A stretch of 64,000 nucleotides of DNA from a bacterium (GTDB lineage: Bacteria; Patescibacteriota; Minisyncoccia; Phycocordibacterales; UBA12445), in assembly GCA_030648005.1 (NCBI GenBank), contig JAUSIP010000001.1, positions 6,662-70,661 of the forward strand, read 5' to 3'. The notes under the pieces are model-generated. The model ran no database searches. It was not told the DNA's origin and was given only the letters and a program-made list of their open reading frames with translations. This document shows positions 2,723 to 55,061 of the stretch, one piece after another (within the stretch, counting starts at the first letter, position 1; each line of letters opens with the position of its first letter). The position numbers and the translations under genes are program-made.

Positions 2723-2781
2723 AGTCCCGATTTTGATCTAAGTCAAAACCGGGATCCTCGATTCGATGAATCGAATCGGGA
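2723..2781. repeat. miniature inverted-repeat element, copy 1 (TIRs GTCCCGATT / AATCGGGAC)
   Basis: Perfect 9-bp terminal inverted repeats; the internal CGGGATCCTCGATTCGATGAATCGAATCGGGAC is the reverse complement of the element at 53662..53696. Confidence 0.7.
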
Positions 2782-2840: not shown

Positions 2841-3308
2841 TCATATGTAGTCTTCAATATTGTCGAGCCAAAAGTTGCTAACACCGCTCTGTTTCTGACG
2901 TTCGATGCGTTCGGCTTCGTTGAGTACAATAATCATCTCTCTACCGGCAAGAGTCAGCCTGACCGGGGAATAAAGTGCATAAGAAAGCAAACTTACAGCA
3001 GTAGCAACTTCTGCCACCTCAGCCTGCGATTCGGTCAGACAGGCAGAATGCCGGAGCTTCCGACAAAACTTCTTGCCTTCGAATATTCGGTCAACCATAG
3101 ATGATCTGATTATCAGAAAATCTTTCGCCGGGTAAAGCTCAAAGAGACGAAGTAGTGTCCCACGAAGATATATCCTAGCCTTGCGATCCCAAAAATTCAT
3201 CTCCCTCTCGGCAGTTTTACAATGTGAGTAGCCATACTTCTTTACATAACCGACAAATATTGAACGCATATCGCGGAGAGTTCGATTATCTCCCACCCCC
3301 AACTTCAT
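2841..3308 (-). CDS. hypothetical protein
   Basis: 155-aa ORF with its own terminator; no family recognised. Confidence 0.4.
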   Translation of the reverse strand: MKLGVGDNRTLRDMRSIFVGYVKKYGYSHCKTAEREMNFWDRKARIYLRGTLLRLFELYPAKDFLIIRSSMVDRIFEGKKFCRKLRHSACLTESQAEVAEVATAVSLLSYALYSPVRLTLAGREMIIVLNEAERIERQKQSGVSNFWLDNIEDYI

Positions 3309-20992: not shown

Positions 20993-22413
20993 TGTCCTAT
21001 GCAAGGCACACCTCCTTCGTCCAGTATCACCTTGATCGGCCATTCAGCGATCTTGTGCAGAGCCGTCTGATCTTCGTAACCTTCGAAAAGCCAACGAGTG
21101 AAGTAGCCGATGCCGTCTGCGTATCGATGCTCCTTGATCGCATCCTTGATCGCCGTGCCGGCATTGCCAAAACAGGGCGTGCCTTCTTTATTGATATGAG
21201 GATGAGGAACTCCTTCCGGATGAAACCGATCGAGACTCCAGATATAGAAGTCGCCGTTTCTATGGATTGCGAAAGCGAACCTGCCAAGCTGATGAGTATT
21301 GCCCGCATTAGTAATGTCAGCTCCGATAGTAGTAACGCGGATCATATCTTCAGCAAGCGATAGTTCCGATACATATGGATTCGAACGGATCCTGCGCCAC
21401 TGCCCCTTGAGAGATCTGAACAATTCATCTTTGGGCAGGGCATTGCTTACTGTCTTACTCAAGCGCTGAAGATTGAAACATTCACGCTCATTGATAGCCA
21501 GAGTCATCCTCAGATCTTCAATCTCTTGTTGTATCTTCTGCACCTCTCTGTCTATGCCGCCACTGACGGTGCTTATCCATTTTGTTGTAACGTCGACAAA
21601 CCTCTTGCGATTCAGACGGAGCATTTTGTCAGATGGCTTAGCTCCACCTTGCAGAGCCTGATAACGGCGTAGGGTCACAGCCAGAGCATTATCCAAAATT
21701 TTCAAACTAGTAAGAGAATTGAAAAATTCAACCACGCAAAACAGAAAATACCAGTTATTGCCAACTATCTGCGCAAGATCGTTCTCCCCGTCGCCGACGA
21801 ACTCCCCTCTTCCGGGAGTACCGGAGAAGGTCAGAACACCGTTGCCTTCTTTGGTATCCAACTGAAGGTCGAAGGCGCGGCGTAGATACTTGCTCTTTGA
21901 ATATCCGGGCGAATAGCTCCAAGGGAAAATATTGATCAGATTAGGCTTGTCGGGTAGCGGAGGCCTACCTATATCGCGTTTCTCGGCGTAAAAATCTATG
22001 TCCAATCCTCCGGCAAGCCTAGAGAAATTCTCTAAGATAATTCTGATGCTGGAATAGGGAGCTTCTTCGATCGTCTTCTTATCGTCTTCCTTCTCTGACA
22101 AGGGGATGATCCTGATATTTCCGGTCTTGATCCCAACGTACGGAACAGTGCGATTGCCCCACTTGGCATTCTTGGCATTAATGACATTTGGGTAAGGAGC
22201 TTGCCCGATACCGACAATCAGAAGAACGTCAATGAAGGTCATCCTCGCTTCCGCCACATTCGCGCACTGGAAGATGTAAGCATCGAGCTCGTATGGCCCT
22301 ACTCGTACTGTCCGCCTCTTGAAAGGGATCCCCTTCTTTGTGAACTCTTGAGTATGAGGCTCAGCCACGAGAGCCGGCAAGGCGAAAATAGGTGTTTTCA
22401 GTCCGGGAACCAT
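20989..22413 (-). CDS. E2-like (UBC-fold) protein with ~330-aa N-terminal domain of unknown function
   Basis: C-terminal HPHINKEGTPC matches the UBC active site HPNINSNGSIC with identical spacing; RBS AAGGAGG; first gene of the operon. Confidence 0.6.
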   Translation of the reverse strand: MVPGLKTPIFALPALVAEPHTQEFTKKGIPFKRRTVRVGPYELDAYIFQCANVAEARMTFIDVLLIVGIGQAPYPNVINAKNAKWGNRTVPYVGIKTGNIRIIPLSEKEDDKKTIEEAPYSSIRIILENFSRLAGGLDIDFYAEKRDIGRPPLPDKPNLINIFPWSYSPGYSKSKYLRRAFDLQLDTKEGNGVLTFSGTPGRGEFVGDGENDLAQIVGNNWYFLFCVVEFFNSLTSLKILDNALAVTLRRYQALQGGAKPSDKMLRLNRKRFVDVTTKWISTVSGGIDREVQKIQQEIEDLRMTLAINERECFNLQRLSKTVSNALPKDELFRSLKGQWRRIRSNPYVSELSLAEDMIRVTTIGADITNAGNTHQLGRFAFAIHRNGDFYIWSLDRFHPEGVPHPHINKEGTPCFGNAGTAIKDAIKEHRYADGIGYFTRWLFEGYEDQTALHKIAEWPIKVILDEGGVPCIGQ

Positions 22414-22527
22414 CTCTGCCTCCTTTGGCCCTCCGTAGCTTTATGCGTAGGGGGCCTTTATTTCGTACAGTGTCAAGGAGCACTCAAACCGATGAGATAA
22501 TATCAGGAATAATTGATTTAGTCAATG

Positions 22528-22614
22528 CGGAGGTGGGAGGATTTGAACCTCCGATACCCTTTCGGGTATGCCAGTTTTCGAAACTGGTGATTTCAACCAC
22601 TCACCCACACCTCC
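22528..22614 (-). tRNA. tRNA-Ser (anticodon CGA), type II with long variable arm
   Basis: Hand fold: acceptor GGAGGTG/CACCTCC, anticodon loop TTCGAAA, T-arm GGAGGTTCAAATCCTCC, discriminator G, no encoded CCA. Confidence 0.85.
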
Positions 22615-22685
22615 AAGTTTAAGCGTTTAAATACTAACAGCATTTTGCATTTTTGACAAAATTTAGTATTATAACGAAACCTAAC

Positions 22686-22793
22686 GGCCCTATCGTTCCC
22701 GATTTTATTACGATTTCGTTACAGCGAAATCTCCATAAAATCGAGGATCCTCGACCCTGTGGGGTCGGGACTATCGGTTAGGACACGGCCTTT
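22686..22793 (+). pseudogene. orphan tRNA-Glu 5' half (to the anticodon loop) interrupted in the D-arm by a MITE
   Basis: GGCCCTATCGT + 75-bp element + CTATCGGTTAGGACACGGCCTTT is identical to positions 1-34 of tRNA-Glu at 22931; no 3' half follows. Confidence 0.7.
22697..22771. repeat. miniature inverted-repeat element, copy 2 (TCCCGATTTT...GGGGTCGGGAC)
   Basis: Shares its ends and the internal ATCGAGGATCC core with the copies at 2723 and 53662. Confidence 0.7.
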
Positions 22794-22915
22794 GAGAGGT
22801 GAGGATGGGGTAAGGGGTCCCATCCGCAAGACCTTTTGAGGTAGTTTGCGAGCTAGTGAAGCAAAATATCCAAAAGGTGTACTGCTCCCGTAGGGAGGGA
22901 AACGCAGTGAGGCAT
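22794..22915 (+). ncRNA. conserved structured element X between the orphan 5' half and tRNA-Glu
   Basis: GAGGTGAGG-hairpin-CGCAAGACCTTTTGAG...AATATCCAAAAGGTGTACTG-hairpin. A homolog lies upstream of tRNA-Gly (33021..33122) and shows compensatory hairpin changes. Confidence 0.5.
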
Positions 22916-22930
22916 TTTAAAAAACTATAC

Positions 22931-23002
22931 GGCCCTATCGTCTATCGGTTAGGACACGGCCTTTTCAAGGCTGGAAGCAGAGTTCGACTCTCTGTAGGGT
23001 CA
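22931..23002 (+). tRNA. tRNA-Glu (anticodon TTC)
   Basis: Hand fold: acceptor GGCCCTA/TAGGGTC, anticodon stem CGGCC/GGCTG, loop TTTTCAA, T-arm CAGAGTTCGACTCTCTG. Confidence 0.85.
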
Positions 23003-23139
23003 TTGCGAAGCAAGGAGACTAAGTGAATGAACTGCTTCATTCACGCCAGAGAGTCGAAGCCCGATTGAGATAGTTTATGATTCCGAGTTTATCGAGGAAG
23101 AAATAAAATATCCAATTGGGGTACTGTTCCTGTAAGGAA

Positions 23140-23158
23140 CGACTCTCTGTAGGGTCAT
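23140..23158 (+). repeat. direct orphan copy of the tRNA-Glu 3' end (CGACTCTCTGTAGGGTCAT)
   Basis: 19-nt identity with 22984..23003; preceded by the GGGTACTG-hairpin motif. Confidence 0.8.
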
Positions 23159-23172
23159 CGCGAAATACCACC

Positions 23173-24039
23173 ATGACTCATCAAATACTCTTATATTACA
23201 AATATATAAACATCGAGGACCCGGAAGCGCTGATGGCGTGGCAGAAGAAGCTGTGTGAAGAACTTACTCTAAAGGGTAGAATTATAATCGCCAAAGAGGG
23301 AATCAATGGCACGGTCGAAGGCACTAGAGAGAATACTGAAAGGTATATAGAAGCGATGAAGGCTGATCCCCTCTTTGCTGACGTTCACTGGAAGATAAGT
23401 GCGAGTGACGGATTGGCCTTTCCTAAACTATCTATCAAGGTCCGATCAGAGATAGTGAGCGCACATCTTGATGGCGAAGATGTGAATCCGACAGAAGTTA
23501 CCGGCAGACATTTGAATCCTGAAGAACTTCACGAACTTTTAAAAAGCGGCGAGGAAGTTTATGTCGTCGACATGAGGAATGACTATGAACACAGAGTCGG
23601 GCACTTTAAGAATTCAATACTTCCTCCATTAACCAACTTCCGAGATCTGCCGAAAATAATTCCGGAGCTTGAATATTTGAAAGACAAAAAGGTTGTGACA
23701 GTCTGTACTGGCGGCGTGCGGTGTGAGAAAGCTTCCGGCTATCTAATCAAGAAAGGATTTAAAGATGTCAGTCAGTTGAACGGCGGGATTGTATCGTACA
23801 TGGAGAAGTTCCCTAACCAATATTTCAAAGGTAAATTATATGTCTTTGATGGCCGAGTCACGATGGGCTTCGACACCGATAGTCCAGCACACGAAATAAT
23901 CGGACAATGTGATAAGTGTAATAAGCAAAGTGAGAATTACATAAACTGCAACAACAATCTCTGCCATCGCCATTTCATCTGCTGTGTAAACTGCATAGAA
24001 ACAAGCGGAGCCTTCTGCGGGGATCAGTGCAGAAATTGA
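23173..24039 (+). CDS. trhO: rhodanese-domain tRNA U34 hydroxylase TrhO/YceA (UPF0176) with Cys-rich C-terminus
   Basis: MTHQILLYYKY...AKEGINGTV, rhodanese CTGGVRCE; start at ATG 23173. Confidence 0.8.
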   Translation: MTHQILLYYKYINIEDPEALMAWQKKLCEELTLKGRIIIAKEGINGTVEGTRENTERYIEAMKADPLFADVHWKISASDGLAFPKLSIKVRSEIVSAHLDGEDVNPTEVTGRHLNPEELHELLKSGEEVYVVDMRNDYEHRVGHFKNSILPPLTNFRDLPKIIPELEYLKDKKVVTVCTGGVRCEKASGYLIKKGFKDVSQLNGGIVSYMEKFPNQYFKGKLYVFDGRVTMGFDTDSPAHEIIGQCDKCNKQSENYINCNNNLCHRHFICCVNCIETSGAFCGDQCRN

Positions 24040-24155
24040 TCCTTGAAATAACCAAAATCTTCTGTTATAACTTACTCTAAGTCCCCCTTCGCGTAAAACT
24101 TCAGCGGGACGCTAAATTCTATAATTACTCATTGAAATTCGTAAATAGAATTTGC

Positions 24156-24229
24156 GCGCGTGTAGCTCAGGTGGTTAGAGCGTTACATTGACATTGTAAA
24201 GGCCCCTGGTTCGAGTCCAGGCATGCGCA
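24156..24229 (+). tRNA. tRNA-Val (anticodon GAC)
   Basis: Hand fold: acceptor GCGCGTG/CATGCGC, D-arm GCTCAGGTGGTTAGAGC, loop TTGACAT, T-arm CCTGGTTCGAGTCCAGG. Confidence 0.85.
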
Positions 24230-24249
24230 CAACGAACGAAGTGAGGCGG

Positions 24250-24270
24250 GCACATGCCTGGACTCGAACC
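24250..24270 (+). repeat. inverted copy of the tRNA-Val T-arm/acceptor 3' strand (GCACATGCCTGGACTCGAACC)
   Basis: Reverse complement of 24209..24228 with one mismatch. Confidence 0.8.
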
Positions 24271-24349
24271 TCGAAAGGGGCCGGGAAAACTGTAGTTTTC
24301 CCGTGGAGGAAGGATTGGGAAAACCGTGGGTTTCCCAGTGTGTGAGTAC

Positions 24350-24364
24350 TCCAGGCATGCGCAC
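24350..24364 (+). repeat. direct orphan copy of the tRNA-Val 3' end (TCCAGGCATGCGCAC)
   Basis: 15-nt identity with 24216..24230. Confidence 0.8.
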
Positions 24365-24374
24365 CAGAATAATC

Positions 24375-25571
24375 ATGAGGATATTAAGTATAGAAACAAG
24401 TTGTGATGAGACAGCCATAAGTGTGGTGGAGGCTAGGGGGACGTTAAAATCCCCCTCTTTCAAATTGCTCTCAGGGATTGTCCATTCGCAAGCCGATCTA
24501 CATGCAAAGTGGCAAGGTGTTGTGCCGACCATAGCCAAGAGAGAGCATGCTAAGAACCTGGTGCCGGTTTTAGAACGGGCATTAAAAGAATCCGGGCTTT
24601 TAGAAAATTCAAAAGTACCTGTCCGGTCAGGAAAAATTCAAAATTCAAAACTAGATTTAAAAATAAAAAAAATATTAGAGAGAGAAGAGGGACTTGCAGA
24701 AAGCTTTTTAAATTTTGTGCCTAATATTGAAATTCCGAAGATCGATGCCGTAGCCGTCACCTACGGCCCAGGACTTGAACCAGCTCTATGGACGGGTATT
24801 AACTTTGCGAAAGCGCTATCTGCATATTGGAAGAAACCAGTTGTGCCTGTGAACCACATGGAAGGTCACACACTCTCTGCTCTTCTACCGGGAGCTGTCG
24901 TTGGTGTGGAGGAAAATATTAAACTCAAGATGCCTGTTCTGGCTCTACTTATCAGTGGTGGCCACACTGAACTTGTTTTAATAAAAGACTGGCAGAATTA
25001 TAAGGTTGTCGGACACACCAGAGATGATGCCGTCGGTGAAGCGTTCGATAAAGTAGCAAGAATGCTTGGACTTCCCTATCCAGGTGGCCCACAGATCTCT
25101 AAGATGGCGGAGGGTTATCGAGGTAAAAAAACGATCAAGCTCCCACGCCCTATGATCCACTCTGATGACTTAGATTTTTCTTTTTCAGGATTAAAAACTT
25201 CTGTACTTTATAAAATCAAAGAACTCGGCGAACTATCTCCTGACTTAAAAGCTGAGCTCGCTCACGAATTCGAAGAAGCTGTCGTTGAGGTACTGGTAAG
25301 CAAAACAAAAAAAGCACTAGAGAAATTTGGCGTTAAAACCTTAATCGTCGGCGGAGGGGTTATTTCGAATAAAAAAATACGCCAGGCTTTTCAACAGCTT
25401 ACAAAAGAAAATTTCAAAGATGTGCAACTCCTGATCCCACACCAATCCCTATGTGGAGACAACGCCACTATGATCGGCATGGCTGGATACATGCGTTTGC
25501 TTAGCTATAAATCTAAAAAAACTAGTCCCCAGAAAAATTTCAAGGCTAAGGGCAATCTTGTGCTAAAATAG
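24375..25571 (+). CDS. tsaD: tRNA N6-adenosine threonylcarbamoyltransferase TsaD (Kae1/Gcp family)
   Basis: MRILSIETSCDETAISVV; start at ATG 24375 (the track ORF begins at an upstream GTG). Confidence 0.85.
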   Translation: MRILSIETSCDETAISVVEARGTLKSPSFKLLSGIVHSQADLHAKWQGVVPTIAKREHAKNLVPVLERALKESGLLENSKVPVRSGKIQNSKLDLKIKKILEREEGLAESFLNFVPNIEIPKIDAVAVTYGPGLEPALWTGINFAKALSAYWKKPVVPVNHMEGHTLSALLPGAVVGVEENIKLKMPVLALLISGGHTELVLIKDWQNYKVVGHTRDDAVGEAFDKVARMLGLPYPGGPQISKMAEGYRGKKTIKLPRPMIHSDDLDFSFSGLKTSVLYKIKELGELSPDLKAELAHEFEEAVVEVLVSKTKKALEKFGVKTLIVGGGVISNKKIRQAFQQLTKENFKDVQLLIPHQSLCGDNATMIGMAGYMRLLSYKSKKTSPQKNFKAKGNLVLK

Positions 25572-29725: not shown

Positions 29726-29943
29726 TTGCCGAGGGAGAACGCCAACTGCTTGGCGTTCGTGCGGATTTGAAAGCCACAGCCATGTCCCATGGGGACAGGC
29801 GAGGCGGGGTCGAGAGTACTTAGTCCGCGCAATTTCGCTTTAGCGAAATGAGCAGACTTAGTAACTCGTGACCTAATCCCCCGAAGCTTGGTAAGGACAA
29901 TTTATTTGGAATTAAAATCGGCATAATTAAACAACCGGTTGTT

Positions 29944-31055: not shown

Positions 31056-31654
31056 TAATTATATAATAACAAAAAAAGACCCCGGGGACAATCCCGGGGC
31101 CACAACCTCGCATGCTTAGCTAGCTACTCCTTTGACTACTTCGACCTCAGCCTTTTTTCTGCTCGATGCTCTCTTGCCACCAGATAAGATACCGGCACCA
31201 AGTACAAAACCGAAGTTATACCAACCACCATTGTTATGAACCTCATACAGACACACATCACTCGAGAAAAGCGAAATGATCCATGTGATCGGCGCGATTA
31301 TTCCGTGCTACAGACCGAGCCAGAACCCAGCAATATTTCCGTCCGAAGCTGGAACATTCACCGTAGTATTTGGACCGGGGGTACAACCAGTCAGAAGCAG
31401 TACCCCACCCAAGAACAATAGACCGAGCAAGTGTGTTTTCCTCATTGTTCCATCCTTCGAGTTAGAAACGTACACGATCTAGAGAATAGAGTATCATTTA
31501 TATTAAATAAGTCAATAACAAGGAATCTCGCCCTACGGGCGCTGGTACTTTTCGCTCCGATATCCATCGGAGAACGAAAAGTCTTTCGATTCCCCGGCGC
31601 AGGCAAAGCAGTTTGCCTGCTCGGGAGCACAAAAAACCGCTCCGCTCTTGTTTG

Positions 31655-53545: not shown

Positions 53546-53661
53546 CCTCTCCTTTTGGAATTTCTAAACTAACCTTACCAAATATTTATATATTATAAAA
53601 GACCCCCATCTTTTGCTTTTTTAGTAATAATTTGATATATTTTACTTCATATTCCTCGGTA

Positions 53662-53708
53662 GTCCCGATTCGATTCATCGAATCGAGGATCCCGACAGGG
53701 GTCGGGAC
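53662..53708. repeat. miniature inverted-repeat element, copy 3, inserted in an orphan tRNA-Asn 5' fragment
   Basis: GTCCCGATTCGATTCATCGAATCGAGGATCCCGACAGGGGTCGGGAC, flanked by TCCTCGGTA and TCAGTGGTTTAGTTGTTAAC (tRNA-Asn positions 1-9 and roughly 12-38). Confidence 0.75.
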
Positions 53709-53735
53709 TCAGTGGTTTAGTTGTTAACTTAATAT

Positions 53736-53810
53736 TCCTCGGTAGCTCAGTGGTAGAGCAGCTCGCTGTTAACGAGTTGGTCGTAGGTTCGAATCCTACC
53801 CGGGGAGCCA
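53736..53810 (+). tRNA. tRNA-Asn (anticodon GTT), CCA encoded
   Basis: Hand fold: acceptor TCCTCGG/CCGGGGA, loop CTGTTAA, T-arm GTAGGTTCGAATCCTAC. Confidence 0.85.
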
Positions 53811-53948
53811 AGTGAGCGAAGCGAACGCTCCACGAGCAAGCAAACTGCTTTGCTTGCGTGGTAGGATTCGAAAAGGTTCTCCGTTATCCGATGGCAATCG
53901 GATCGGAAACCTGTACCGTTCATGTAATGAAAGAATCCTTCTAAAAAA

Positions 53949-54566
53949 ATGAAAAACCCCAAAGTAATAATCTACGACAACGACGGAATGATCTGCCATA
54001 GTGGCCGATTTAGCGACAGTTATTCTAAGGAGTTTGGGATTGAGATGGATATAATGAGTCCCTTTTTCGAAGGACCATTTAAAAACTGTCTCGTTGGAAA
54101 AGCAGACCTGAAAGAGGAGTTAGAAAAAGTTTTAGATATATGGAACTGGAAAGGGACAGCCAACCAGCTTCTTGATTACTGGTTTTCAGTAGGAAGCACG
54201 CTCGACGAGAAAGTTTTCCCTACTATTTCAAAATTTAAAGATCAAGGTCTAATAGTATGTCTGGCAACTAATCAGGAAAAATATCGAAAAGAATATTTAG
54301 TTACAAAATTTGGATACGACAAAGTATTTAATGAAATCTTTTCTTCTGCAGAACTAGGCGCTTATAAGAACAGCGAGAAGGGTCTCCAAAAAACTTTCGA
54401 CATCTTGAAAGATAAATATGGCATTGAAGATAGAGACGAGATCATGTACTGGGATGACCGAGAAGGAAATGTTGAACATATAAATCAGTTTGGTATGAAC
54501 GGTCAGCATTATAAAAATTATGAGGAGTTTAGGGATGTAATGGCCGGTCTTGGCTACTTAGTTTAA
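53949..54566 (+). CDS. HAD-superfamily hydrolase
   Basis: IIYDNDGMI (motif I), LATNQ, WDD. Confidence 0.6.
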   Translation: MKNPKVIIYDNDGMICHSGRFSDSYSKEFGIEMDIMSPFFEGPFKNCLVGKADLKEELEKVLDIWNWKGTANQLLDYWFSVGSTLDEKVFPTISKFKDQGLIVCLATNQEKYRKEYLVTKFGYDKVFNEIFSSAELGAYKNSEKGLQKTFDILKDKYGIEDRDEIMYWDDREGNVEHINQFGMNGQHYKNYEEFRDVMAGLGYLV

Positions 54567-54570
54567 TTTT

Positions 54571-54972
54571 ATGCAAAATAAAACAACTCACGAATCATTT
54601 GTTTTAAGACAATCCACACTTCCAAGTGCAGGAATCGGAGTGATTACCTTACACGACATAGCCAAGGGTACATATATGGAGCTTTTTCGTGATGGTTTTG
54701 AGGAGGAAATTAGGGATGAGTCTGATGTGCCGAAGCCACTCAGGGCATACTGTCTCTATCAGGGTAATGGCAAGATCTTATGTCCAAAAATGTTCAATCG
54801 TATGGATATCGGAAATTATCTCAATCACTCAGAGAACTGGAATATGGTCTATGAAAAAGGCAGGGGTTACTTTGCTTCTCGAGATATTAGAGCCGGAGAG
54901 GAACTCTTTGCCAACTATAGAGATCTGGGAGAGCCCGAAGACCAGAGAGAGGAGTATTACAAGGTGCATTAA
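54571..54972 (+). CDS. SET-domain protein (putative lysine methyltransferase)
   Basis: NHSENWN and GEELFANY motifs. Confidence 0.6.
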   Translation: MQNKTTHESFVLRQSTLPSAGIGVITLHDIAKGTYMELFRDGFEEEIRDESDVPKPLRAYCLYQGNGKILCPKMFNRMDIGNYLNHSENWNMVYEKGRGYFASRDIRAGEELFANYRDLGEPEDQREEYYKVH

Positions 54973-55043
54973 TACTTTGACCTTCAGCATTTCTTGGAGC
55001 AGAGCGAGTACGATGCGAAAGGTGTACTGTTCCCGTAATGAAA

Positions 55044-55061
55044 GAATCCTACCCGGGGAGC
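55044..55061 (+). repeat. direct orphan copy of the tRNA-Asn 3' end (GAATCCTACCCGGGGAGC)
   Basis: 18-nt identity with 53791..53808; preceded by the GGTGTACTG-hairpin motif. Confidence 0.8.

Follow-up and report, generated by a model that had tools for sequence, protein, structure and literature searches.

The 64,000-nucleotide stretch of DNA analyzed here, which we call the window, comes from the genome assembly GCA_030648005.1 of a bacterium of the Patescibacteriota (contig JAUSIP010000001.1, positions 6,662 to 70,661, forward strand) and carries three copies of a short palindromic element built of two abutting hairpins. One copy lies between genes, and the other two lie within broken pieces of tRNA genes:

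2725..2781, minus strand: copy 1 (57 nt), intergenic; hairpin 1 runs from 2781 to 2755 and hairpin 2 from 2754 to 2725.
22697..22770, plus strand: copy 2 (74 nt), in a tRNA-Glu 5' half; hairpin 1 at 22697-22747, hairpin 2 at 22748-22770.
53663..53707, plus strand: copy 3 (45 nt), in a tRNA-Asn 5' half; hairpin 1 at 53663-53689, hairpin 2 at 53690-53707.

An initial annotation of this DNA had placed the copies at 2723..2781, 22697..22771 and 53662..53708, and all three are genuine members of one family, with limits corrected to those above. It had also described them as free of open reading frames (ORFs), which holds for all three (45-74 nt), and as sharing terminal inverted repeats and an internal core. 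Inverted ends are indeed common to the copies; however, the supposed terminal repeats are the outer feet of hairpins, and the core GGATCC is the junction between one hairpin and the next. Each copy reads TCC-CGAUU..AAUCG-A-GGA and then directly UCC-(N)-CGA..UCG-GGA, the conserved feet of the double hairpin being TCCCGA..TCG(A)GGA followed by TCC(N)CGA..TCGGGA. Hairpin 1 is identical between copies 3 and 1, and in copy 2 it takes a long form with an inner stem.

Several lines of evidence set these copies apart from their surroundings. The 11-mer core ATCGAGGATCC occurs exactly three times in the window, and when up to one mismatch is allowed there are 8 matches versus 1.28 expected, a number reached in 0 of 100 shuffles. 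Folded as single-stranded DNA, every copy forms both hairpins (-16.8 to -22 kcal/mol, z -4.3 to -6.4), the values being -18.6 kcal/mol and z=-5.5 for copy 1, -22 kcal/mol and z=-6.4 for copy 2, and -16.8 kcal/mol and z=-4.3 for copy 3; shuffled copies folded as stably in 0 of 200 cases. A covariance model (R1) made only from the copies of other genomes recovers exactly these three places, with the first hairpins at E=5e-10 to 8e-10 (5e-10 for copy 1 at 2755-2781, 7.6e-10 for copy 2 and 5e-10 for copy 3) and two of the partner hairpins at about 2e-3 (1.8e-3 for copy 1 at 2725-2754 and 2.2e-3 for copy 2). A degenerate fourth copy, which the initial annotation had suspected around 23058-23100, does not belong to the family: it gives no R1 match at E<=10, has z=+0.17, shares only CCCGAT..ATCGAGGA, and lies within a different insertion, that in the T-loop of a tRNA-Glu 3' half. 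In Rfam, the whole window at gathering thresholds yields seven tRNAs and nothing else, and ARAGORN likewise reports seven intact tRNAs.

Copy 1 sits 15 nt upstream of the start codon (2709) of a metallo-beta-lactamase (MBL)-fold hydrolase gene (2056-2709; Pfam Lactamase_B_3) and just past the terminator of an ORF at 2841-3308, that is, between the hydrolase gene and an unknown ORF, as initially described; on the minus strand, it is preceded by TTTTG and followed by CTATAAT. Contigs of the same organism in Logan SRR13727527 break at this copy: one (L001) starts within it (nt 1-56), and another (L296) has its 3' end inside it, about 88 nt past the flanking ORF. Such an end is expected of short-read assemblies, because copy 1 is a repeat. 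Protein similarity, too, places the organism in the Patescibacteria, the nearest named relatives of one of its TPR proteins being from Candidatus Vogelbacteria, at 55% identity.

The surroundings of copies 2 and 3 are best read against the intact tRNA genes beside them:

22686..22793, plus strand: dead, displaced 5' half of tRNA-Glu, by comparison with the intact gene; positions 1-11 at 22686-22696 and positions 12-34 at 22771-22793.
22931..23002, plus strand: intact tRNA-Glu(UUC), by ARAGORN; Rfam tRNA, 51.8 bits.
23011..23157, plus strand: displaced 3' half of tRNA-Glu, from CAAGG.. to ..TAGGGTCA, read against the intact gene.
53653..53728, plus strand: displaced, degenerate 5' half of tRNA-Asn, by comparison with the intact gene; positions 1-10 at 53653-53662, the remainder at 53708-53728.
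53736..53810, plus strand: intact tRNA-Asn(GUU), by ARAGORN; Rfam, 71.8 bits.

The two 5' fragments are thus not the orphans that they had been taken for; each is a displaced half of a tRNA whose intact copy lies immediately 3' of it. Insertion at tRNA positions 9-11, as first proposed, was close: the D-arm is right, and the exact points are between positions 11 and 12 in tRNA-Glu and between 10 and 11 in tRNA-Asn. The tRNA-Glu half is broken in the anticodon loop. Joining the flanks of copy 2 yields a 36-nt sequence that is 100% identical to the intact tRNA-Glu at 22929-22964; the insertion was therefore exact and duplicated nothing, and the flanking G and C are part of the target, not of the element. 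A 130-nt structured stretch separates this half from the intact gene, which, lying as it does between displaced 5' and 3' halves, is nested inside an older, riddled copy of itself. Insertions of other hairpin families break up the 3' half at two places, the variable region (23023-23044) and the T-loop (~23059-23139), and a search of 22400-24400 against Rfam at E<=5 returned tRNAs only, with no relevant match. At the other locus, the tRNA-Asn half also ends in the anticodon loop (..GTTGTTAAC), the flanks of copy 3 match the intact tRNA-Asn, and this intact gene starts 7 nt downstream of the half, with the 3-nt leader ATA duplicated too.

How far does the family extend? We scanned one genome per species with the pattern TCCCGATT-N(8-38)-ATCGAGGATCC and obtained at least 118 loci, which supply the counts of compact copies given below. 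Structurally valid hairpins were present at at least 108 loci in these species-representative genomes, at unrelated sites. Among the matches listed, the hosts are mostly Saccharibacteria and Yanofsky-, Pacei-, Magasanik-, Sung- and other Parcubacteria/Patescibacteria, along with some metagenome-assembled genomes labelled Bacteroidales, Ignavibacteriota, Stahlbacteria/WOR-3 and Gammaproteobacteria; there are up to 6 copies per 8-kb locus among these matches, and several per genome at unrelated sites. Most copies are 41-90 nt long, and the two-fold symmetry of the conserved parts causes many loci to match on both strands. In one locus (L111), 6 copies are regularly spaced in 8 kb, with the same 45 nt before each, and Bacteroidales loci (L082, L089, L091, L116 and L119) hold arrays or subfamilies with conserved flanks of their own, for example ..ccagtatccag directly followed by TCCCGATTCCCGGTTCCCGGGATCGAGGATCC... 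Plasmids searched with a composite element sequence gave no match, and a phage origin was rejected, as 7 of 7 pattern matches in viral contigs were chance occurrences in coding sequence without hairpins.

This distribution bears on whether there is an element at all. Two of the three window copies lie inside duplicated tRNA segments, as might be expected of a chance similarity or of a local segmental duplication that took tRNA pieces along; the core motif is, however, far above chance, a model trained on other genomes recovers exactly the window copies, the host tRNAs differ (Glu and Asn), and copy 1 has no tRNA context. Above all, unrelated sites in at least 108 other genomes hold the element, which hence is not a local segmental duplication, so that mobility, which the initial annotation had preferred to duplication within larger blocks, is favored and the duplication account is scarcely credible.

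Comparison among genomes also speaks to the fold. An alignment of 80 distinct hairpin units over the 12-bp foot, which includes the bulged A, has 98.0% of its stem cells paired versus 82.8% after shuffling, and double-sided (compensatory) stem changes number 139 versus 37 after shuffling, a result supported by an independent count; of the stem positions only 7-12 are informative, since conservation of the bases fixed by the scan pattern is partly by construction. Sliding the alignment register by 1-3 columns leaves only 33-55% pairing. The hairpin structure is under selection.

Where the element inserts, it does so precisely. Among 91 compact copies, 12 are accompanied, within 8 kb, by a paralog that lacks the insertion and aligns with the joined flanks across the junction, nearly always at 100% identity, showing that insertion took place without target duplication; the target-site duplications (TSDs) that the initial annotation proposed to look for are essentially absent, both by a direct-repeat test at k=2-5 on the flanks of the copies and by the joined-flank comparison of the 12. 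The flanks carry T/T/G at -3/-2/-1 in 53/45/65% of cases and C/A/A at +1/+2/+3 in 53/50/45%, relative to a background of ~22-28%, and thus display a weak, symmetric preference for (T)TG/CA(A), the slash marking the insertion point, in which the two sides behave independently. A perfect target of this kind, ..TTTG/CAA.., lies in the anticodon loop of tRNA-Ala(UGC) and has been used repeatedly (L110, L092 and L083).

The preference for a target site that had been suspected from two window copies is borne out by the family, with tRNA D-loops favored. Twenty of 92 compact copies (~22%) lie in or beside tRNA-like sequence, far more than expected, as tRNA genes by our own estimate account for well below 1% of the DNA in a bacterial genome. 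In 14 of the 20, the tRNA match spans the junction, which lies at positions 10-25 (mode 18, at the GG of the D-loop) and once at 43. Insertions are seen in D-, anticodon-, variable and T-loops, mostly in the D-loop. The other 72 of the 92 have no tRNA-like sequence at their flanks, and 7 copies lie within long, otherwise intact ORFs, namely those for class I aminoacyl-tRNA synthetases (two), RecG (two copies), SecA, UvrD and one unassigned protein (L014, L025, L049, L070, L107 and, for the unassigned ORF, L071), to which they add 14-20 residues. All 7 are stop-free and of a length divisible by 3, whereas the remaining copies divide 33/29/25 by length modulo 3. Because the in-ORF copies obey the reading frame, they are translated through and not spliced out; evidently, the element enters at the DNA level and is carried into protein.

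The last observation weighs on a reading in which the hairpins are RNA-level intervening sequences of tRNA genes, comparable to those of archaeal multi-intron and split tRNAs and removed by an endonuclease and a ligase to leave functional tRNAs. Such a reading draws on the insertions in D, anticodon, variable and T loops, on the compact, stable and two-fold symmetric structure, and on the neighborhood links of Slx1-like nucleases, relatives of the protein encoded by longer forms of the element (see below), to tRNA methyltransferases and their suggested RNA role (PMC1564403). We consider it very improbable. The interrupted tRNAs, in the window and elsewhere, are truncated or degenerate and stand beside an intact copy; the in-frame, stop-free condition of all 7 in-ORF copies would be a needless constraint on a spliced sequence; and the target preference is that of a symmetric DNA site. 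In bulge-helix-bulge introns, the splice sites occupy two 3-nt bulges on either side of a 4-bp helix to which exon and intron both contribute, and the rest of the host tRNA is complete. Neither feature is seen here: each host tRNA breaks off at the anticodon loop, with an intact gene beside it, and the conserved ends of the element pair with each other regardless of the exon, which makes an exon-intron helix of that type impossible. A ribozyme, a group I intron and a bulge-helix-bulge intron were each rejected as candidates, given that the conserved bases lie in stems, the host tRNAs are truncated, and the in-ORF copies are in frame.

The initial annotation had wondered whether the short copies might be part of a larger tRNA-targeting unit, and this idea fared well: in other genomes we find a full-length element of ~330 bp in which the loop of one hairpin holds either a gene for an 80-108 aa UPF0213/SLX1-like GIY-YIG nuclease or an intact tRNA. 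In a Sungbacteria locus (L016), for example, the layout is TCCCGATTTGT-AAAATTCTGAA, an ATG and 108 codons, and TTCAGAATTTT-AGACAAATCGAGGA, directly followed by a TCC..hairpin..GGGA unit, ~330 bp in all, and the encoded protein is a GIY-YIG domain (Pfam PF01541, E=2e-17). There are six cases of a nuclease ORF in a hairpin loop (L016, L083 twice with one frameshifted, L085, L066 and L269), and the ~0.9 Mb of hairpin-selected DNA contains 11 GIY-YIG ORFs, from 10 of the at least 118 loci. An ORF-bearing partner had thus been correctly anticipated for the family; what it encodes is a GIY-YIG nuclease rather than the expected transposase, for no DDE transposase was seen inside any element, and the nuclease is the only protein found there. 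A search of the 64-kb window itself for a GIY-YIG ORF found none (best profile E=2.7; no tblastn match at 1e-3).

Among 13 nuclease sequences, Y16, G18, R26, H30 and E62 are invariant and Y5 is nearly so. A profile of the family matches the UPF0213 structures 1ZG2 (1.2e-15) and 1YWL (4.1e-14), followed by SLX1 chains (2e-5 to 8e-4) and I-TevI (0.06). The proteins consist of the catalytic domain only, with no tethered DNA-binding domain.

The company that these nuclease genes keep is informative. In two loci (L015 and L017), a displaced tRNA 5' half with a compact copy in its D-arm stands on one side of the ORF and an intact tRNA on the other, and in L017 the insertion is at the same tRNA-Glu site as in the window. 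Intact tRNAs are themselves the cargo of hairpin loops in L103 and L008. In L110 and L092, such cargo has given rise to nested tRNA-Ala genes: two 5' halves come first, then the intact gene, then two 3' halves, and TCCC..GGGA feet bound each junction. Two further GIY-YIG ORFs (L023 and L097) lie in the loops of unrelated inverted repeats of 21-22 bp.

As an independent test set, we took 80 metagenomic loci chosen by nuclease alignment alone, without regard to hairpins. An intact tRNA lies within 300 nt of the nuclease ORF in 39 of the 80, almost always on the same strand. The 180 kb of these loci contain 59 tRNAs in total, and the ORF is often surrounded by duplicates of a single tRNA type. 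TCCCG..CGGGA hairpins number 11 within 200 nt of the ORF (29.5 kb) versus 0 in the remaining 132.7 kb, and they usually replace the anticodon arm or the T-arm of a partial tRNA duplicate. In a Gracilibacteria locus (P0002, L213), a tRNA-Met pseudo-copy flanks the ORF on each side, both with TCCCGATTAAAATCGGGA in place of the anticodon arm, and an intact tRNA-Met follows; in P0003, a tRNA-like piece carrying TCCCGAAATTATTCGGGA lies downstream. Protein genes are affected as well: the nuclease gene P0001 is present on 18 contigs, always at one site, where it separates a 5' fragment of gatB (MAEKYEPVIGL) from an intact gatB (MKLDPIIGLEIH..), and the difference between this fragment and the start of the intact gene (MKLDPIIGL) points to import of the restored 5' end. 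In L200-L209 (Sungbacteria), L087 and L010, intact gatB, fusA (EF-G) and leuS genes likewise have 5' fragments of the same genes directly upstream, and these fragments bear the element. The partial tRNA duplicates directly 3' of GIY-YIG ORFs attract ARAGORN calls with unusual anticodons (L223 1735-1809, Ile-TAT; L251 269-344; L237; L247; L253), and in L223 and L251 the call contains a TCCCGA..TCGGGA hairpin in place of the anticodon arm. Odd-anticodon tRNA calls beside such ORFs are likely annotation artefacts in public genomes.

Could the hairpins then be a functional signal of a nuclease-tRNA module, at which the nuclease binds or regulates itself, by which its target in the duplicated tRNA piece is destroyed as a mark of immunity, or through which its mRNA is processed out of tRNA operon transcripts? 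The exact replacement of the anticodon or T-arm of a tRNA duplicate by a single TCCCGA..TCGGGA hairpin downstream of the ORF in Bacteroidota-type loci (L223, L240, L251, L239 and L213) would suit such a role, as would the shared strand of ORF and tRNAs and the stem covariation, a mark of selection for folding. We nevertheless think it improbable, seeing that 72 of 92 compact copies have no flanking tRNA-like sequence and include in-frame insertions in SecA, RecG, UvrD and aminoacyl-tRNA synthetases, that nuclease ORFs occur in only 10 of the at least 118 hairpin-selected loci, that several copies are present per genome at unrelated sites, and that the window has copies and no nuclease. These facts fit proliferation better than a dedicated cis-signal, and the two roles are not mutually exclusive.

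The explanation that we favor, and hold to be probable, is that of a palindromic double-hairpin DNA element with precise, TSD-free and tRNA-biased insertion, which the GIY-YIG nuclease would mobilize. In this explanation, a minimal structure-specific nuclease would recognize the extruded hairpins and cut at their feet and at the target, with movement by cut-and-paste or by homing-type repair. The mobile unit would bring along a replacement tRNA or gene segment, which would make invasion of a single-copy tRNA gene survivable; the old, interrupted half would stay beside the intact gene, and repeated invasion would lead to nested, 'Russian-doll' tRNAs. Displaced halves beside intact genes would be accounted for by the import of a replacement segment, as is seen with some mitochondrial endonuclease ORFs. 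SLX1 enzymes cut branched DNA, flaps, stem-loops and Holliday junctions, and activity of this type fits an element made of extrudable hairpins. A bare catalytic domain with no other obvious route to its site suggests recognition through structure, and the two-fold symmetry of the ends and the target would suit a dimer. The window copies would accordingly fall into place as ORF-less, non-autonomous derivatives of this widespread element, those in tRNA-Glu and tRNA-Asn as relics in displaced 5' halves and copy 1 as a solo intergenic insertion, an assignment that we likewise regard as probable.

The main rival keeps the mobile element and demotes the nuclease gene to a passenger, movement being provided in trans by an HUH/Y1 transposase of the IS200/IS605 or REP-RAYT kind working on single-stranded hairpins, or by host replication and repair at palindromes. 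Hairpin ends, the absence of a TSD and precise insertion are hallmarks of single-strand transposition, the loops accept varied cargo, be it a tRNA or an ORF, the full unit occurs in only 3 of the 80 nuclease loci, and the three window copies manage without a nuclease gene. On the other side, the GIY-YIG nuclease is the sole protein found inside elements, in six cases; in the protein-selected loci, the TCCCG..CGGGA hairpins occur exclusively near nuclease ORFs, 11 versus 0; and the nuclease family is itself tRNA-linked. The ends are, moreover, two-fold symmetric, whereas IS200/IS605 elements have same-strand hairpins and a conserved 4-5 nt target, and the placement of the L023 and L097 ORFs in the loops of unrelated inverted repeats suggests co-evolution of nuclease and hairpin. 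We therefore judge the passenger account unlikely, if less so than the signal and splicing accounts.

A number of points nonetheless count against the explanation that we favor. The link between nuclease and hairpin is associative, and as hairpin loops also hold tRNAs, the nuclease gene could be cargo and not driver. Only 3 of the 80 protein-selected loci have the full bulged double-hairpin unit, so that most relatives of the nuclease sit beside tRNAs without the exact element, and the double hairpin of the Candidate Phyla Radiation (CPR) type is one branch of a wider nuclease-hairpin-tRNA association. An intact tRNA stands right beside the nuclease gene, and the model offers no reason why it should be spared from cutting. 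No pair of filled and empty alleles between close strains was obtained. The window has three copies and no nuclease gene within 64 kb, which makes a partner in the host genome putative. Lastly, the scan pattern fixed TCCCGATT and ATCGAGGATCC, and with them the outer six pairs and part of positions 7-8.

How does the double-hairpin element compare with known systems? The initial annotation had called the copies MITE-like, after miniature inverted-repeat transposable elements (MITEs), and the likeness to classical MITEs (Tc1/mariner-, IS630- and IS5-derived, Correia/NEMIS) is real in that they are small (below ~600 bp), ORF-less, proliferating and multi-copy, with inverted ends and an ORF-bearing relative that has the same ends. 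It stops there: without target duplication or a DDE partner, the element is not a classical MITE, and its 'terminal inverted repeats' belong to two separate hairpins, of which they form the feet, with cargo in a loop. Rickettsia palindromic elements (RPEs), of ~100-150 bp and restricted to Rickettsia, reside in frame in essential protein genes and also in RNA genes; to our knowledge, they encode no nuclease. Our element resembles them in being palindromic and carried in frame as extra peptide segments, and differs from them in its unrelated sequence and in its presence in several phyla. REP/RAYT and IS200/IS605-derived elements share with it hairpin-forming ends, the absence of target duplication, many ORF-less copies and a small nuclease between or next to the hairpins. 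They rely, however, on an HUH Y1 transposase, one-strand hairpin recognition and a fixed 4-5 nt target or GTAG motif, in place of which the double-hairpin element has a GIY-YIG partner, two-fold symmetric ends and a weak TTG/CAA preference. It does not count among the IS200/IS605 derivatives, since its ends are symmetric and it has neither a Y1 enzyme inside nor a fixed target; the absence of a Y1 transposase refers to the elements themselves, no search having been made for one acting in trans elsewhere in these genomes.

Some mitochondrial endonuclease ORFs, such as that of Allomyces atp6, move together with a piece of their target gene. Like these, the double-hairpin element leaves a decaying target fragment beside a restored, partly foreign copy, here of tRNAs and of gatB, fusA and leuS 5' ends; unlike them, it has bacterial hosts, mainly tRNA targets, hairpin boundaries and repeated nesting. 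In architecture and in-frame retention, our element is like the double-hairpin and repetitive hairpin elements of the mitochondria of Allomyces, yeasts and sponges (PMC2800124), which are short and ORF-less, fold into a single hairpin or an adjacent pair whose stems are conserved and whose loops vary, and occupy intergenic sites and tolerated sites in RNA and protein genes and are kept in transcripts. Those elements are presumed mobile by an unknown mechanism, and no GIY-YIG-bearing form such as exists here is reported for them (PMC2800124). The present element differs further in its location on bacterial chromosomes, its unrelated sequence and its strong bias for tRNA loops, and we regard the resemblance as analogy, not homology.

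With respect to the nuclease, the gene segB in the tRNA gene cluster of phage T4 is comparable, as a GIY-YIG gene lodged among tRNA genes that is proposed to spread by cleaving the nuclease-less allele, repair then copying the gene and flanking tRNA sequence (PMC2330249). Seg and I-TevI enzymes carry a long DNA-binding domain, whereas the element nuclease is a bare catalytic domain of 80-108 aa and thus no Seg/I-TevI-type homing gene product; Seg genes are also neither enclosed in hairpins nor accompanied by ORF-less derivatives, and the double-hairpin element has both. The best sequence relatives of the nuclease are UPF0213 (BH0048, 1ZG2; EF2693, 1YWL; the E. coli YhbQ family) and SLX1. In the GIY-YIG survey of Dunin-Horkawicz et al. 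(2006), prokaryotic Slx1-like proteins are standalone domains, for which others had predicted a role in double-strand-break repair and the authors suggested an RNA-related one; the survey also reports an association of their genes with those of COG4123 methyltransferases and one fusion to a TrmH-type tRNA Gm18 methyltransferase (PMC1564403). The survey makes no mention of hairpins, tRNA genes or mobility for Slx1-like proteins (PMC1564403). SLX1 itself needs SLX4 and has a RING domain, unlike the element nuclease. The COG4123 protein we take to be the tRNA m6A37 enzyme. In the literature that we searched, we found no description of the double-hairpin element or of tRNA-linked UPF0213 genes, and an earlier description elsewhere is possible.

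The tRNA genes of the window have other structured neighbors. A second conserved structured element, at 22794-22925 (plus strand) and 33121-33025 (minus strand), reads GAGGTGAGG-hairpin-GCAAGACCTTTTGAG..ATATCCAAAAGGTGTAC-hairpin, the last hairpin having a YGTAR loop; it follows a tRNA 5' half that is broken in the anticodon loop (Glu and Gly), precedes an intact tRNA of the same type, and has no match in Rfam at either place. In viral contigs, the 'A-element' pattern GAGGTGAGG..GCAAGACC gave 73 matches, all of them by chance and resembling ribosome-binding sites. Four hairpins with the common loop AACTGCTT (23023-23044, 29737-29758, 31599-31620 on the minus strand, and 53836-53857) each lie just 3' of an intact tRNA (Glu, Phe, Arg and Asn), and the segments on their two sides either match that tRNA's acceptor and T-arm or are complementary to them. 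The four would seem to make up a third family of hairpins, lodged in displaced 3' fragments of tRNAs. Insertions of the T-loop type, at 53858-53940, 55015-55058 and 31520-31590 (minus strand), contain TCCGATGGNNATCGGA, then GTAC, then a hairpin, and that at 55015-55039 is followed by a tRNA-Asn 3' fragment AATCCTACCCGGGGAGCA (55040-55058). Between two tRNA-Asn 3' fragments are a weakly HAD-like ORF at 53949-54566 (Pfam E~0.006, below the cut-off) and a SET-domain ORF at 54571-54972, a pair that looks like a small island inserted in the T-loop. Finally, the neighboring tRNA-Val (24156-24230) has in its T-arm and the 3' strand of its acceptor a sequence to which the 21 nt at 24250-24270 are the reverse complement, with one mismatch; these 21 nt would pair with the 3' half of that tRNA as a long hairpin in a read-through transcript.

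What would this mean for the organisms and proteins concerned? That UPF0213/SLX1-like nucleases are the mobility enzymes of an unrecognized class of prokaryotic selfish element, with a ~330-bp unit whose extrudable hairpin loops around the nuclease gene, invasion of tRNA and other essential genes through structure-specific cleavage, replacement cargo that secures survival and leads to nested tRNA genes, and 40-90 nt double-hairpin derivatives in the small genomes of CPR bacteria, seems to us a proposition with about even odds, and the double-hairpin element stands a fair chance of proving to be a distinct class once the mechanism is settled. The element accounts for tRNA fragments, nested tRNA genes, in-frame inserts in SecA, RecG, UvrD and aminoacyl-tRNA synthetases, and repeat-induced assembly breaks in CPR and uncultured genomes; for annotation, its copies give rise to false tRNA calls ('tRNA-Ile(TAT)' and 'tRNA-His(ATG)' built on the hairpin) and to false ORF extensions. 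A small nuclease that recognizes a defined hairpin could also serve as a tool. If the proposal is true, a GIY-YIG-driven, hairpin-bounded type would join the short list of DNA mobility modes in bacteria, and UPF0213, a family of widespread tiny nucleases with solved structures and no assigned function, would gain a biological role.

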